This document shows positions 14,560 through 19,788 of a DNA stretch of 64,000 nt, in pieces (the stretch's first letter is position 1; every line of letters starts with the position of its first letter). The position numbers were made by a program, and so were the translations under genes. The notes below the pieces were generated by a model. It ran no database searches. It had not been told where the DNA came from and saw nothing but the letters and a program-made list of their open reading frames with translations. This DNA is from Lachnospiraceae bacterium (GTDB lineage Bacteria > Bacillota > Clostridia > Lachnospirales > Lachnospiraceae), in contig JAFOEY010000034.1 in NCBI GenBank assembly GCA_017387565.1, positions 16,607 through 80,606 of the forward strand, given 5' to 3'.

Positions 14560-15486
14560 TTAGAATACCGGGATTACTGCATTACCATATGTTTCCTCGA
14601 TATAGCTTTTTACACCGTCACTCAATACGGCGTCTACCAATGCCTGTGTTTTTTCAGAGTTTTCATTGCCTTCTTTTACAACAATCACATTTGCATAAGT
14701 ATCTGCTGCTAACGAATCGGAAGCTTCTACTGCGATAGCATCTGCTACATTTAAGCCGCCTTCTGCTGCATAGTTACCATTAATTGCTGCAATATCAACA
14801 TCGGGTAAAGAACGTACCAGTTGTGCTGCTTCAATTTCCTTGATTTCCAGGTTCAAAGGATTTTCTTCGATGTCCAGTACAGTTGCTGTTAAGCCTGCGC
14901 CCTCTTTTAACTTGATTAAGCCCTGTGCTTCCAGTAATAAAAGTGCTCTTGCTTCATTGGTTGTATCATTCGGCACGGCTACAACAGCACCATCTTTTAA
15001 GTTAGCAATGCTATCTGTTTTGCCGGCATAAAGTCCAAATGGCTCAAAATGTACAGCTGCTACAGAAACCAGATGAGTTCCATTTTCAGCATTGAAATCA
15101 TCCAGATACGGCTGATGCTGGAAGAAGTTTGCATCCAGTTCACCATCTTCCAATGCTGTGTTGGGTAATACATAATCATTGTATTCTACAACCTGTAAGT
15201 CATAACCTTCTGCTGCCAGTGTGTCTTTTACCTGTGCTAATATTTCAGCATGGGGTGTAATGCTGGCTCCGACCTTTAAAACTTCTAATTCCTCTGTTGC
15301 GGTATCTGTCGTTTCTTCAGTTGTTGCATCAGCTGTGTCAGCATCTTCTGTTTCCTGTGTTGATTCCTCTGTTGCCGCATTTTCTGTAGTTTCATTTGTT
15401 TCACCATCGTTTGCTCCACATCCTGTCAGTCCTACAACTCCGAATGCCAATGTTGCGATTAATAATGTTGCGATTTTCTTTTTCAT
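14560..15486 (-). CDS. metQ: Methionine ABC transporter lipoprotein (MetQ/NlpA)
   Basis: Lipobox LTGC, acidic linker, GASITPHAEIL, DANFFQHQPYL, PNDTTNEARAL, INGNYA. Confidence 0.92.
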   Translation of the reverse strand: MKKKIATLLIATLAFGVVGLTGCGANDGETNETTENAATEESTQETEDADTADATTEETTDTATEELEVLKVGASITPHAEILAQVKDTLAAEGYDLQVVEYNDYVLPNTALEDGELDANFFQHQPYLDDFNAENGTHLVSVAAVHFEPFGLYAGKTDSIANLKDGAVVAVPNDTTNEARALLLLEAQGLIKLKEGAGLTATVLDIEENPLNLEIKEIEAAQLVRSLPDVDIAAINGNYAAEGGLNVADAIAVEASDSLAADTYANVIVVKEGNENSEKTQALVDAVLSDGVKSYIEETYGNAVIPVF

Positions 15487-15513: not shown

Positions 15514-16179
15514 TTAGTTTCGGATACGTTTATCCGTTTTATTTGCAATAAACATGCCAAGCTCCTGGAATACCTGTACAATAATGACCAGTACAAATAC
15601 CGTTGCCCACATGATATTGGCCTGATAGCGATAATAACCGTAATTGATAGCGATTGCTCCAAGTCCGCCGCCACCGGTAAATCCTGCCATTGCGGAATAG
15701 CCAAGCAGAGTTGCAAATGCTATGGTACATCCGACAAACAAGGATGGTTTTGCCTCCGGCAGTAACACTTTCCAGATGATCTGGAAGTTGCTTGATCCCA
15801 TGGCCTGTGCCGCTTCAATTACGCCCTGATCCACCTCCTTTAAAGATGATTCCACCATTCGTGCAATAAACGGAATGGCTGCTACAATCAGCGGAACTAC
15901 CGTTGCATTTGTTCCGATCGTCGTTCCTGCCACAAGCCTTGTAAAAGGCAGAATGGCAATTAACAAAATAATAAAGGGTATGGACCGGGTTAAATTCACA
16001 ATCACGCCCAATACCGTATTGACGATCCGACATCGGCAAATTCCGTTTTTATCTGTTATAAAAAGCAGTACTCCCAAAGGAATTCCCGCCAGATACGAAC
16101 AGGCTGTAGAAAGGATTACCATATATAAGGTTTCCAATGCACCTTTGTAAAGCAGTGTAACTAACTGATTAAATTCCAT
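15514..16179 (-). CDS. metI: Methionine ABC transporter permease
   Basis: RSIPFIIL, EAAQAMG EAA loop, SAMAGFTGGGGLG, YGYYRY. Confidence 0.92.
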   Translation of the reverse strand: MEFNQLVTLLYKGALETLYMVILSTACSYLAGIPLGVLLFITDKNGICRCRIVNTVLGVIVNLTRSIPFIILLIAILPFTRLVAGTTIGTNATVVPLIVAAIPFIARMVESSLKEVDQGVIEAAQAMGSSNFQIIWKVLLPEAKPSLFVGCTIAFATLLGYSAMAGFTGGGGLGAIAINYGYYRYQANIMWATVFVLVIIVQVFQELGMFIANKTDKRIRN

Positions 16180-17170
16180 CCACATCTTCCTCCTCGTAAT
16201 GAACTCCTATCGAATCCAGATATTCTTTTGCTAAAGCAATTACCGCTTCATCCTGCGGAAATTCCAAAAGCATCTGGCCATATGCTTTTCCTCCGATATC
16301 TTCTGTTCCGGCTCCCAAAATATTGACCGGGATATGACATTTTAAAACCAGATTGGCCACAACCGGTTCGGAAGATGCCTGCCCACCAAAAACAAGTCGG
16401 AATACCTTTCCCTGATAGGTCCGGTTGTCAAATTTTTGTTTGGGATAAATCATTTCCTGGGCTACTTTAGTTTTGGGTGATAAAAATACCTCCTGTACAC
16501 TTCCCTGCTCAACGATTTCTCCCTCATTTAACACAGCCACATGGGTACATATTTTTTCCACCACACGCATTTCATGCGTAATGACGATAATTGTAACGCC
16601 CAGCTTTTCATTGATTTCTTTTAAAAGCTCCAAGATGGAATTGGTCGTATTGGGGTCCAAAGCACTGGTTGCCTCATCACACAAGAGGTATTTCGGCTGT
16701 GTAGCCAATGCCCTTGCAATTGCCACTCTCTGTTTCTGTCCTCCTGATAGCTGTGCAGGATAGTGATACATTCGGTCTTCCAGTCCTACCAGTTTTAAGA
16801 GTTCAATTGCCCGCTCCTTTGCTTCTTTTTTATTTGTGCCTGCAATCTCTAAAGGATAACAGACATTTTTCAAAGCGTTTCTTTGTGACAATAAATTGAA
16901 CTGTTGAAAAACCATTCCGATTTTTCTTCGCTCTTCTCTAAGTGCCGCATTTCCAAGTGTCGTCAGTTCTGTATCATCTATAAAAACTTTTCCTCCTGTT
17001 GGTCGTTCCAACAGGTTCACACATCGTACCAATGTTGATTTTCCGGCACCGGAAGAACCAATGATACCAAAAATACTTCCATCTTCGATGGTAAGATTTA
17101 TGTTTTTTACGGCTTCGGTCTCTTTATTCTTCTGAACAAAAGTTTTGCTTACCTGTTCCAGTCGTATCAT
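16169..17170 (-). CDS. metN: Methionine ABC transporter ATPase with C-terminal NIL domain
   Basis: GSSGAGKST, LSGGQKQR, DEATSALDP, ITHEM, C-terminal NIL-like VNILGAG. Confidence 0.93.
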   Translation of the reverse strand: MIRLEQVSKTFVQKNKETEAVKNINLTIEDGSIFGIIGSSGAGKSTLVRCVNLLERPTGGKVFIDDTELTTLGNAALREERRKIGMVFQQFNLLSQRNALKNVCYPLEIAGTNKKEAKERAIELLKLVGLEDRMYHYPAQLSGGQKQRVAIARALATQPKYLLCDEATSALDPNTTNSILELLKEINEKLGVTIIVITHEMRVVEKICTHVAVLNEGEIVEQGSVQEVFLSPKTKVAQEMIYPKQKFDNRTYQGKVFRLVFGGQASSEPVVANLVLKCHIPVNILGAGTEDIGGKAYGQMLLEFPQDEAVIALAKEYLDSIGVHYEEEDVDGI

Positions 17171-17211
17171 GTCTTTTCCTTTCTTTGATTTTCTTTATAC
17201 TGTTATTCTTA

Positions 17212-17290
17212 TTCTGAAATCGAGTTTTCTCAATTCCTGTTTTTCTGAAATCAATTTTTCACAATTCCTATATTTTGAAATCAGACTTTT
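17212..17290. repeat. Degenerate ~31-bp tandem repeat (about 2.5 copies) in the metN 5' region
   Basis: TTCTGAAATC at 17212 and 17243, TTTGAAATC at 17274. Confidence 0.6.
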
Positions 17291-17303
17291 TAATGCCTGT
17301 TAT

Positions 17304-17338
17304 GAAAAAAACGCAGGCGCACCATTGCACCTGCGTTT
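17304..17338 (-). terminator. Attenuator terminator upstream of metN
   Basis: AAACGCAGGTGCA-ATGG-TGCGCCTGCGTTT (13-bp stem) plus U-tract. Confidence 0.85.
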
Positions 17339-17359
17339 GCTAAAAATCTTCATTGTATT

Positions 17360-17461
17360 TTATCGCTTTCGGGGTGCAGGAAAATAAACCATATCATGTC
17401 TTGTCATCATACAGCAGCGTGTTTGCATATTCATCATCATAGTATTTACTGTTTTTTGCAT
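17360..17461 (-). CDS. Met/Cys-rich leader peptide MQKTVNTMMMNMQTRCCMMTRHDMVYFPAPRKR
   Basis: 33 codons with 8 Met and 2 Cys, strong GAAAGGAGAG RBS, directly upstream of a terminator and metNIQ. Not in the ORF track. Confidence 0.8.
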   Translation of the reverse strand: MQKTVNTMMMNMQTRCCMMTRHDMVYFPAPRKR

Positions 17462-17563
17462 AATATCGTTCTCTCCTTTCCTCTTTTGCTTTTTGTTCCT
17501 TTCGATGTGTTTAGTATAGCATCATGCAAAGAAATGTGTTAATACGCAAAATTTATAATTAGT

Positions 17564-17580
17564 CATAGGGAAATACTATA
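17564..17580. promoter_or_regulatory. LysR-type (MetR/MtaR-like) operator
   Basis: CATAG-GGAAATA-CTATA, upstream of a TGnTATACT -10 (17513-17521) of the met leader. Confidence 0.45.
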
Positions 17581-17734
17581 ACAAGCAATCAATTTCTTAA
17601 TCAGCAAAAAAATCTAGAGCTGGCACTCTAGACTTCTTTCGACGCACTTGGAATCAAACTAACTTTTCTTAGCTAAGTTCATATTACAACCTTTTTTCCA
17701 AAATACAACAATAATCATATTCAATTTTGTTAAT

Positions 17735-17768
17735 CGAACTTGTGTTCTGTTTTAGGTTATGTTATAAT
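17735..17768 (+). promoter_or_regulatory. SigA promoter of the small toxin gene overlapped by a LexA (Cheo) box
   Basis: CGAAC-TTGT-GTTCT (17735-17748) overlaps -35 TTGTGT (17740-17745), then 17 nt, then TGnTATAAT (17763-17768). Confidence 0.7.
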
Positions 17769-17848
17769 GAATTTAGTAGCAATTTGCTACGGGCAATCGT
17801 GTTACAGGGTGGTTGACCTCTATTCTACATAGAATGGAGGTGATGCTG

Positions 17849-17935
17849 ATGAAGAAATTTGACTTTAAAGACTTAATGTCTTTCGGAATGTTTCTCTTAG
17901 CATTGCTGACATTCATTTATTTGATTTGTCAGTAA
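17849..17935 (+). CDS. Type I toxin-like small membrane peptide MKKFDFKDLMSFGMFLLALLTFIYLICQ (holin-like toxin type)
   Basis: GGAGGTG RBS, 28 aa with a basic N-terminus and single TM. 5' UTR (17791-17820) is complementary to the 3' region (18000-18026). Not in the ORF track. Confidence 0.8.
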   Translation: MKKFDFKDLMSFGMFLLALLTFIYLICQ

Positions 17936-18142: not shown

Positions 18143-18556
18143 TCACATCAACCAATCCATATAATATAGCTCTATTCCACTATTCATAAATTCAAACAAA
18201 GTGCAGGCCATCCTTCCTATTATACTAACACCCGCTAAATTCAATAGAACAGCTATAATAACCCCCAATATTACACATGCCCAGATAATAAAAATTTGAC
18301 CTTTACATTGTTTACTATTGATTATCTTGATTGTAAGGTAAATGGTTGGAACAAGAATAAATGCTATGATTACTATAGTCACTCCTATGCTGACAATATA
18401 TCCAATACCGGTTAGATATCGTCTATACCCAGCCCACCCATAAGACACATTTATCTTATAATTAACATCGAATCCTATTCTAAAGGCAGTCAATATTTCA
18501 ACATATAATACCAATAAAAAATACTTCAATCCTATATTCTTTTGCTTTGCTTTCAT
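18143..18556 (-). CDS. Hypothetical membrane protein (AT-rich)
   Basis: 137 aa with 3-4 hydrophobic segments. Start overlaps the upstream stop (ATGA). Confidence 0.6.
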   Translation of the reverse strand: MKAKQKNIGLKYFLLVLYVEILTAFRIGFDVNYKINVSYGWAGYRRYLTGIGYIVSIGVTIVIIAFILVPTIYLTIKIINSKQCKGQIFIIWACVILGVIIAVLLNLAGVSIIGRMACTLFEFMNSGIELYYMDWLM

Positions 18557-19197
18557 TCAATAATATGCTCCTCACAAATCACAAAAGCATTTGTATCGTA
18601 ATCATACTTATAACTACACTCCACATGTGTATTCGTATCTCTTCTATAACTTCCAATTATCAAATTTTTATCTTTATCAATCTGATAATTCGGTATCTGT
18701 TCGAAAGATGCGTTATAAGCAAATACTCCACCATAATTTAAATACACACAATGAACCAAAGCTCCCTGAGCACCTGAATGACCAAGGAATATGACTAAAT
18801 CATCAAGTCCATCAAAATTTACATCTTCCAGCTTTGCTTCAAAATCACAAGCGTCATATACATATCTACCAGCGCCAATTTCGTCACTTGATGGATAAGT
18901 TACTACAATTGCTCCTATTTCATCATCTACATAAAAGAAATAATCTCTTTTGTGCTCATACTCTCCCTTTGGAGTATCAATGTACTGTATTCTAACTCTA
19001 TAGCAACGATTCTCTTCAACCCATTCCATAGATTCTATTTTTTCATTATCATCAACCAATTCTACTATTTCTTCTACTCTTTTATCTACATCTACGTTAC
19101 CTGATGCACAAACAAAATCAGCATTTTCTTTCGTTCCACATCCGGCAATAAAAACTATACAAATGACAAATATTGCATACAATATCTTTTTCTTCAT
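18553..19197 (-). CDS. Hypothetical lipoprotein with an EDVNFDGLDDL beta-propeller-like motif
   Basis: Lipobox IAGC and a DxNFDGxxD motif. Confidence 0.7.
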   Translation of the reverse strand: MKKKILYAIFVICIVFIAGCGTKENADFVCASGNVDVDKRVEEIVELVDDNEKIESMEWVEENRCYRVRIQYIDTPKGEYEHKRDYFFYVDDEIGAIVVTYPSSDEIGAGRYVYDACDFEAKLEDVNFDGLDDLVIFLGHSGAQGALVHCVYLNYGGVFAYNASFEQIPNYQIDKDKNLIIGSYRRDTNTHVECSYKYDYDTNAFVICEEHIIE

Positions 19198-19305: not shown

Positions 19306-19788
19306 TCATCCATTAACAATTTTCTTATAATCTTCATCAGATAATACTCCGACTATATTTTCAAGACTATCATATGAAATTTCTAGTTTTTTAAGTAAAT
19401 CTTCTATAATGCTTTCACTATCAAATTTAGCTTTTTTACTTCTTTTGCATTTATCATCAATAACTCTTAACGATTGAATAATATTATCGACTACCATAAG
19501 ATATTGCGTATCATAGTCTGCATTAATAAAATCATTATAAGGAATAGGCAAACGAACATCTGCATACTGCTTTTTATAATTTATGTATTTTCTCGGTTTA
19601 CCCCAACCATCAATAAGATGCTTGTTCGGGTGACAATTTACTACTATCGCTATGCTTTCAATATTATCCGCATATTGTAAAATACTATAATTTTTCTCAT
19701 CTATTCTTTGGCTTATATCTTGAAGAATAATGTGAACATTATTTGCTTCTCGCCAAATCTCACAACTAATAAATAAAGGTCTACTCAT
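19306..19788 (-). CDS. Putative polymorphic-toxin immunity protein (Imm44/Imm12-like)
   Basis: LFISCEI...SIAIVVNC...RKYINYKKQYADVRLPIPYNDF pattern recalled from these immunity families. Not HMM-verified. Confidence 0.5.
   Translation of the reverse strand: MSRPLFISCEIWREANNVHIILQDISQRIDEKNYSILQYADNIESIAIVVNCHPNKHLIDGWGKPRKYINYKKQYADVRLPIPYNDFINADYDTQYLMVVDNIIQSLRVIDDKCKRSKKAKFDSESIIEDLLKKLEISYDSLENIVGVLSDEDYKKIVNG

Follow-up and report, generated by a model that had tools for sequence, protein, structure and literature searches.

A candidate methionine- and cysteine-sensing leader-peptide attenuator ahead of metNIQ in Lachnospiraceae

Attenuation by leader peptides is textbook knowledge for Trp, His, Leu, Thr, Phe, and Ile/Val and, to our knowledge, is hardly documented for methionine. 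An objection raised to methionine attenuators is that a shortage of this amino acid also cripples translation initiation. In Firmicutes, the methionine (met) genes are typically under the control of S-box or T-box RNAs. The present analysis concerns the leader of metNIQ, the operon of a methionine ATP-binding cassette (ABC) transporter, in a stretch of 64,000 nt from a Lachnospiraceae bacterium (GCA_017387565.1, contig JAFOEY010000034.1, positions 16,607-80,606; hereafter, the window). This leader carries a short upstream open reading frame (uORF) rich in Met and Cys codons, followed by an intrinsic terminator and, as judged from its sequence and from related loci, it is quite likely a ribosome-mediated attenuator that senses the charging of Met-tRNA and Cys-tRNA. 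Coordinates are window positions, and both the attenuator and metNIQ are read on the minus strand, which corrects a first-pass annotation of this DNA.

In Streptomyces lividans TK24, the leader peptide metL lies 5′ of metNIQ and was proposed as a Met-dependent attenuator from transcriptome annotation only (PMC8079986). As in the window, the operon is metNIQ, and Met and Cys codons are interspersed near the end of metL (…ARCMCRRMCAF). However, metL is leaderless, has 29 aa and no clear intrinsic terminator according to its authors, is actinobacterial, and has no sequence similarity to the Lachnospiraceae uORF; on sequence grounds, the two are presumably convergent. Two Streptomyces metN-like loci examined here contain no metL-like ORF, and these loci may be other paralogues. 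In Campylobacter jejuni, the leader peptide MetL was predicted 5′ of metBA (PMC3847290) and shows initiation peaks in ribosome profiling (Ribo-seq; bioRxiv 10.1101/2022.11.09.515450). Likewise, a short, terminated RNA that precedes methionine genes carries a leader peptide with Met codons, but this peptide has 20 aa, three Met and no Cys cluster, precedes biosynthetic genes in an epsilonproteobacterium, and its Met dependence is only predicted. Given these predictions of Met leader peptides in S. lividans and C. jejuni, the element is less novel than the first-pass annotation implied. As regards cysteine, the leaderless polycysteine small ORFs of mycobacteria are proven cysteine sensors that act on translation (bioRxiv 10.1101/834739); for the cys operons of actinobacteria, leader peptides rich in Cys had been predicted earlier (PMC1262725). 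The mycobacterial experiments show that Cys codons can serve as regulatory codons. In these uORFs, as proposed for the window, stalling at Cys codons reports the cysteine supply and turns on sulfur-amino-acid genes, whereas they differ in unmasking a downstream ribosome-binding site and in having neither intrinsic terminators nor Met clusters.

The element in the window resembles the classical attenuators (trpL, hisL, leuL, thrL, pheL, and the ilv-leu leader of Staphylococcus aureus, PMC5794164) in its short ORF with a Shine–Dalgarno sequence, its cognate codons, and its Rho-independent terminator, and also in an antiterminator that overlaps the 5′ arm of the terminator and would be covered by a ribosome that has reached the stop codon and left free by a stalled one. 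Unlike the classical attenuators, it uses Met and Cys as regulatory codons, precedes a transporter and not a biosynthetic pathway, takes the Shine–Dalgarno/start region of the uORF as helix segment 1 instead of the regulatory codons, resides in a Clostridia-class Firmicute, where T-box and S-box control dominates, and has no sequence or Rfam relationship to them. A literature search retrieved no report of such a Met/Cys leader-peptide element in Firmicutes. The uORF–terminator element would function like classical leader-peptide attenuators and belongs to no described family.

On one strand, the order is promoter, Shine–Dalgarno, 33-codon ORF, terminator, and metNIQ. The promoter is of the sigma-70 type (17513-17542; TTAACA, 18 nt, (TG)TATACT), with 10/12 matches and a TG extension, and the metN promoter is kept in all relatives. 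The uORF Shine–Dalgarno AGGAAAGGAGAG (17471-17482) and the start codon jointly make up segment 1 of a long-range helix. The predicted leader peptide ORF MQKTVNTMMMNMQTRCCMMTRHDMVYFPAPRKR (17360-17461; 33 codons plus stop) encodes eight Met (M1, M8-10, M12, M18-19, and M24) and two Cys (C16-17), and its regulatory codon cluster (17405-17440) comprises codons 8-12 (MMMNM) and 16-19 (CCMM). Further downstream in the same ORF, codons 21-28 form the anti-Shine–Dalgarno segment ACAUGAUAUGGUUUAUUUUCCU (17378-17399), which pairs with the Shine–Dalgarno/start region, and codons 28-33 form the 5′ strand of the antiterminator UGCACCCCGAAAGCG (17364-17378), which pairs with the 5′ arm of the terminator through GGUGCA, CG, and GC. 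The intrinsic terminator, AAACGCAGGUGCA-AUGG-UGCGCCUGCGUUU plus further U (17305-17338), begins 21 nt past the uORF stop codon and has 13 pairs (7 G-C), an AUGG loop, and a run of seven U, the first three of which are paired within the stem, with a hairpin energy of -21.2 kcal/mol. The U-tract lies about 131 nt from the metN start (17170). The first-pass annotation had counted correctly the 33 codons, the 8 Met and 2 Cys, the Shine–Dalgarno, the 13-bp terminator, and the roughly 130 nt to metN. It had also described uORF codons 28-30 (CCT GCA CCC) as complementary to the terminator arm; the pairings CCUGC:GCAGG and UGCACC:GGUGCA do exist, but as alternative registers of 5 and 6 bp and not as a single 8-bp helix, and folding of the window uses the UGCACC:GGUGCA register plus two 2-bp extensions.

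The regulated genes are metN (16169-17170), the first of them, which encodes the ATPase of the methionine ABC transporter (TIGR02314 ABC_MetN, E = 9e-113), metI (15514-16185), the permease gene (NF008049, above the curated cut-off), and metQ (14560-15486), which encodes the substrate-binding lipoprotein of the MetQ/NlpA family; all three were identified by NCBIfam methionine ABC transporter models.

The Met content of the uORF is far from that of a random frame. Its Met density is the highest of the 402 ORFs of 20-60 aa that start with ATG in the six frames of the window, and the binomial probability of at least seven internal Met in 32 codons is 7e-6, with ATG accounting for 2.3% of sense triplets. 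In a distant comparison set of 80 metN loci with MetN identity of at most 56%, used as a negative control, no comparable Met-rich or Met/Cys-dense ORF was found within 450-700 nt 5′ of metN. Moreover, the attenuator region has no match in a whole-window search with Rfam 15 at gathering thresholds, and a permissive search of 17100-17900 (E ≤ 10) returned no S-adenosylmethionine (SAM), T-box, or amino-acid-leader match, the best sub-threshold one being L20_leader with 25 bits against a gathering score of 58.7. The uORF leader matches none of the Leu, His, Thr, Trp, and Phe leader families of Rfam, and no Rfam family was found in the leaders of nine relatives (ten related metN loci in another count). 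An S-box, a T-box, or another Rfam family was rejected as the identity of the leader on these grounds, in agreement with the earlier reading, which found neither a SAM-I nor a T-box consensus. The sole Rfam match in the window is a cobalamin riboswitch (RF00174; 33875-34077, plus strand), with 36.6 bits and above its gathering score.

Related loci, taken as contigs that encode MetN homologues and were retrieved by protein homology, show that the module recurs. The exact 33-aa peptide is also among the genes called on six further metagenome contigs, in which the upstream neighbours differ while promoter, uORF, and terminator are nearly identical; between close strains, there are three nucleotide differences in the uORF, all of them synonymous third-position changes, and contigs from the RNA runs carry a TAA to TGA change of the uORF stop. 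Met-rich uORFs sought upstream of met genes in more distant relatives were likewise found: homologous Met/Cys-rich uORFs of 32-36 codons, followed by a terminator, precede metN in at least six Lachnospiraceae lineages with MetN identities of 69-100%. The peptides are MTGSISKNTMMNMQ[M/I]CCCMMRCHDMVYPAV[L/P]SIRR in L086-L088, L099, and L104 (MetN 84-86%; MTGSISKNTMMNMQMCCCMMRCHDMVYPAVLSIRR in L086), MRKSTNYIMDMQSCCYMMLHDIVYFPAPQLRT in L098 (83%), MRTTVNCMMWIQTCCHTMMEHGMFCYYAPRLRKS in L100 (82%), MRTLNIMSNEIMCCDDRGMCGIMLYQVRLNPFSL in L095, which is Konateibacter massiliensis (70%), and MRSYMRAYNQMMCCCCRYICGIMLYGVRFKPV… in L096/L097, which is Ca. Galacturonibacter soehngenii (69%; MRSYMRAYNQMMCCCCRYICGIMLYGVRFKPVLYLL in L096), each with its terminator. 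An exhaustive phmmer search with the peptide returned two true relatives (P0122 and P0123) and two long low-complexity proteins; P0123, MHITANTMMMNMQTCCCMMMKHDMVYFLAPQWRK, is known from the peptide alone, without genomic context. When metagenomes were scanned with the peptide alignment, the one locus obtained belonged to a clade that was already represented.

Met and Cys codons occupy equivalent positions (codons 5-25) in 7/7 peptide variants, and each homologue carries 7-12 Met plus Cys, while the other residues drift. Between lineages, substitutions are spread evenly over the three codon positions (7/10/8 for the window vs. L098) and codon changes are mostly non-synonymous, whereas the Shine–Dalgarno, the length of 32-36 codons, the frame across indels, the Met/Cys clusters in codons 5-25, and a Met/Cys-free tail of 9-13 codons are kept. 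The recurring residues other than Met/Cys (HDMVY and FPAP) are encoded by nucleotides of RNA helices. Because the three codon positions change evenly while frame, length, Shine–Dalgarno, and Met/Cys persist, the pattern, as read from these sequences, is what a leader peptide would show, in contrast to a protein with a function of its own. Indirect signs that the uORF would be translated are its Shine–Dalgarno, its conserved frame, and the synonymous-only changes between close strains.

RNA pairing was compared in six lineages, namely the window, L098, L086, L100, L095, and L096. A whole-leader MAFFT alignment across lineages misplaced the Shine–Dalgarno region, so structure was analysed lineage by lineage, without alignment covariation. 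An intrinsic terminator lies 3′ of the uORF in 6/6 lineages. Transcripts were folded in silico with a ribosome masked on the first or the last regulatory codon and with the RNA ended just past the terminator loop, before any of the 3′ arm; in these minimum-energy folds, the 3′ end of the uORF pairs with the terminator 5′ arm, again in all six. The pairs are UGCACC:GGUGCA in the window and L098 (10 bp in L098), CCUGCU:GGCAGG in L086, GCGCCCC:GGGUGC in L100, and GUGCG(U/C)U:AGCGCAU in L095 and L096, that is, four different sequence solutions across six lineages. Scored against dinucleotide shuffles of the last 12 uORF codons, the antiterminator duplexes give z values of -1.8, -2.9, -0.7, -1.4, -2.8, and -2.6, with a combined Stouffer z of -5.0 for lineages that are not fully independent. 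In the six lineages, 21-40 nt lie between the uORF stop codon and the terminator arm and, therefore, a terminating ribosome would spare the hairpin and sit on or within the antiterminator. Moreover, the U-tract is only about 25-53 nt away from the metN ATG in L100, L095, and L086, a spacer that leaves no room for a promoter and, thus, metN would need read-through in these three; a separate metN promoter was rejected as a general explanation for this reason. Also rejected was a bidirectional terminator serving a convergent gene, as there is neither a plus-strand T-run nor a converging gene. Taken together with the recurrence of Met/Cys richness, length, Shine–Dalgarno, and terminator in six diverged lineages, the recurring antiterminator supports the earlier proposal of a Met/Cys leader-peptide attenuator of metNIQ. 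In L098, a second terminator-like hairpin, GCUGCCGGUGGCAGG followed by UUUUCUG, lies between the attenuator terminator and metN (about 1915-1970), and both hairpins may be tandem terminators.

A further helix involves the ribosome-binding site itself. In the window, the Shine–Dalgarno/start region is complementary to the distal uORF, with -20.2 kcal/mol vs. -7.9 ± 2.1 kcal/mol for shuffles, none of 300 shuffles giving an equally good duplex. The z values of the Shine–Dalgarno/anti-Shine–Dalgarno helix are -5.8, -5.2, -4.2, -2.2, -2.4, and -1.4 in the six lineages. The first-pass annotation also held that failed initiation would leave the antiterminator free; in ribosome-free folds lacking the 3′ arm, this helix captures the antiterminator strand in L086, L100, and L095, and not in the window, L098, or L096. 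From such modelled folds, it is probably the counterpart of the classical 1:2 hairpin, with the ribosome-binding site as segment 1.

Upstream of the promoter, a MET-box-like palindrome, TATAGTATTTCCCTATG (17564-17580, minus strand; TATAG-N7-CTATg), differs by one mismatch from TATAG-N7-CTATA. The dyad matches the outer half-sites of the streptococcal MET box consensus TATAGTTTnAAACTATA, which is bound by LysR-type MetR/MtaR (PMC2627894). The arrangement is the same as in the Streptococcaceae MetR-MtaR regulon, where TATAG-N7-CTATA lies just 5′ of the -35 hexamer of metQNP/metNIQ-type transporter promoters (PMC2627894); that MET box is a DNA–protein layer, which here would be combined with an RNA attenuator. 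Across the window, the motif has 4 matches vs. 1.5 expected, hence it is weak alone and it is its positional conservation that carries weight: a perfect or near-perfect TATAG-N7-CTATA dyad occupies the same position, just 5′ of the -35 hexamer, in every related metN locus (L081-L104), with or without the uORF. In L095 and L096, the gene directly upstream is of the LysR family, and the L095 regulator has no homologue in the 64-kb window. The palindrome is a probable binding site, predicted from sequence, for a LysR-type MetR/MtaR-like activator. Since the dyad is present whether or not there is a uORF, the attenuator seems to be an add-on inserted between the MET-box promoter and metN. In L092-L094, the same promoter drives metN directly with a leader of about 24 nt, as estimated from spacing; the first transcript nucleotides (…ATCGAAAG…) are common to the window and L092, and the Shine–Dalgarno that follows them serves metN directly in L092. 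Control of metNIQ is thus probably dual, with a MET-box activator and the attenuator as a second layer. The earlier proposal of attenuation as the mode of control is supported, but it had missed the MET box 5′ of the promoter, and the attenuator does not replace promoter-level control.

In the mechanism proposed, transcription would start at the MET-box promoter, with a MetR/MtaR-like activator as the probable first layer of control, and a ribosome would load on the uORF while RNA polymerase is still in the leader. With ample Met-tRNA and Cys-tRNA, the ribosome would reach the stop codon and cover the antiterminator strand (codons 28-33), allowing the 13-bp terminator to form and transcription to stop before metN. 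If either charged tRNA is scarce, the ribosome would stall on codons 8-12 or 16-19, leaving the 3′ end of the uORF free and also preventing the Shine–Dalgarno region from recapturing it; the free 3′ end could then pair with the terminator 5′ arm as soon as this is made, so that no terminator forms and polymerase enters metNIQ. The Shine–Dalgarno/distal-uORF helix, probably acting as the 1:2 hairpin, would limit translation to the first, co-transcriptionally loaded ribosome. The analysis documents the sequence elements with their conservation and predicts the alternative pairings; we infer that the uORF is translated, that ribosomes stall on it, and that read-through depends on Met/Cys. A wider proposal, which is doubtful, is that a two-input sensor evolved at least twice for metNIQ, in Lachnospiraceae and as the CMCRRMC of Streptomyces metL, that import would be turned on when either sulfur amino acid is short, and that the Shine–Dalgarno/distal-uORF helix restricts sensing to a single pioneer ribosome. 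In a bolder version, the conserved C-terminal motif would make the nascent chain respond to free Met or SAM.

Metatranscriptome evidence comes from assembled contigs only. In four metatranscriptomes (X3-X6), a contig of 169-189 nt covers 17370-17557 and there is no metNIQ contig of the same strain, while two runs (X1 and X2) cover the leader and also metN. The leader-only contigs fit, albeit weakly, an abundant short leader RNA.

Several observations weigh against attenuation by this leader. The leader-only contigs reach 5′ of the predicted -35 hexamer and may include DNA or upstream read-through. The AGGAG core of the Shine–Dalgarno ends 11 nt before the uORF ATG, a rather long spacing. The helices of the antiterminator span just 5-8 bp (in the window, about 6 bp with two 2-bp extensions) and, taken singly, are clear of shuffles in only three of the six lineages. 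Moreover, the terminator of the window is far stronger than its antiterminator (-21 vs. about -12 kcal/mol) and, therefore, regulation must be kinetic and may be modest. Beside the Shine–Dalgarno helix, ribosome-free folds of the window, L098, and L096 retain an antiterminator of reduced length, and a ribosome stalled at the M24 codon would mask the antiterminator strand, which is very near. When Met is short, the charging of initiator tRNA is limited as well, and this could blunt the response. Finally, five related lineages lack the module, which is thus dispensable.

Among the explanations that compete with ribosome-mediated attenuation, it is quite unlikely that the uORF encodes a functional small Met/Cys-rich peptide, metal- or redox-active or the precursor of a peptide that is made by ribosomes and modified after translation (a RiPP), with its own terminator and merely adjoining metNIQ, an operon that would have separate transcription or be reached by leaky read-through. 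The ORF was indeed predicted by gene callers in several assemblies, only synonymous differences separate close strains, and HD.VY and a downstream Pro recur within the first subgroup; nevertheless, evolution between lineages is near-neutral except for Met/Cys, with codon positions 1, 2, and 3 changing equally, and the HDMVY and FPAP codons coincide with the anti-Shine–Dalgarno and antiterminator RNA strands. In addition, the ORF always lies between the MET-box promoter and metN, no promoter fits between terminator and metN in three lineages, the leader peptide matches no Pfam family, and no maturase genes are found nearby. Sensing of a free metabolite (Met, SAM, or homocysteine) by an arrest peptide in the ribosome tunnel, as in TnaC, SpeFL, and plant CGS1, instead of sensing of tRNA charging, is improbable to a similar degree. 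Pure codon counting would not call for the degree of conservation seen in the C-terminal part (subgroup 1, HD[MI]VY[F]PAP; subgroup 2, GIMLY.VR..P), and a Pro close to the stop codon is typical of arrest peptides. However, RNA pairing also constrains the C-terminal nucleotides, the subgroups share almost no C-terminal residues (19% identity) while both keep the Met/Cys clusters, and a stall near the stop codon would mask the antiterminator, which is the wrong regulatory sign for an uptake operon.

It is very unlikely that the ORF is incidental and that the leader acts as a riboswitch of an undescribed kind or as an RNA that binds a protein or a tRNA. The typical control of Firmicute met genes by S-box or T-box RNAs, the conserved long-range helix, and a leader that folds better than shuffles (z = -2.3) would agree with this idea, but the region inside the long helix has no conserved structure and instead contains framed, conserved Met/Cys codons and a Shine–Dalgarno, indels between lineages preserve the reading frame, neither a T-box specifier nor a T-box sequence is present, and Rfam matches are lacking in the leader of the window and in those of its relatives alike. 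Lastly, a chance ORF beside an ordinary partial terminator, with metNIQ under the MET-box activator only, has a negligible probability: the MET box and promoter are kept where the uORF is absent, and promoter-level control is enough in some relatives, yet the Met content (P about 7e-6), the lack of anything similar in 80 unrelated metN leaders, and the recurrence of the module in six lineages across the whole range of MetN identities speak against chance.

The lineages devoid of the module are of several kinds. In L092-L094 (MetN 80%), it is absent and the promoter lies directly on metN, and it is also absent from L101, L102, and L103 (MetN 79%, 76%, and 72%, respectively). L089-L091 (MetN 80%) have another leader of about 120 nt (about 1880-2000), which keeps the MET box and promoter and has no Met-rich ORF, terminator, or Rfam match; it may be another, undescribed regulatory leader. 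As far as these loci indicate, the module is conserved but patchy within Lachnospiraceae-like Clostridia.

Other features surround the leader in the window. Between the terminator and metN, a 31-nt spacer unit is present in three tandem copies (17212-17301, minus strand); it is single-copy in the close relatives L081 and L082, and one contig from the RNA runs skips 82 nt there. This repeat is probably a strain-specific spacer expansion and not part of the switch. On the other side, 5′ of the MET box, a hairpin TCTAGAG-TGCCAG-CTCTAGA followed by seven T (about 17604-17632, minus strand) probably terminates the gene upstream (18143-18556, minus strand), in which case the leader would have its own promoter. 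A small hydrophobic ORF, MKKFDFKDLMSFGMFLLALLTFIYLICQ (17852-17935, plus strand), follows GGAGGTG, diverges from the metN leader, and has a weak match to Pfam Hol_Tox, a putative holin-like toxin (E = 9e-4, under the curated cut-off). Further upstream, a lipoprotein gene with an XAC2610-related domain (18553-19197, minus strand) and a gene for an Imm44 immunity-protein homologue (19306-19788, minus strand) lie between the leader and a TraX-like gene. Since the relatives L082-L084 lack both genes and have TraX directly 5′ of the leader, this segment looks like an inserted island.

The points of interest of the element are its amino-acid specificity, its dual-codon design, the helix that would sequester the Shine–Dalgarno, its pairing with a MET box, and the existence of a cultured carrier, Konateibacter massiliensis. 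A Met/Cys attenuator that is conserved across several gut Lachnospiraceae genera and has all its anatomical parts would offer a clean system for testing whether ribosomes can report the charging of Met-tRNA and Cys-tRNA, and would explain a set of 32-36-aa 'hypothetical proteins' called in gut metagenomes. In Clostridia, the control of genes for sulfur amino acids would not be limited to S-box, T-box, and MetR. Moreover, because a MET box is layered with an attenuator and because there is an apparent convergence with Streptomyces metL on mixed Met/Cys codons, the analysis suggests that metNIQ serves the general supply of sulfur amino acids.

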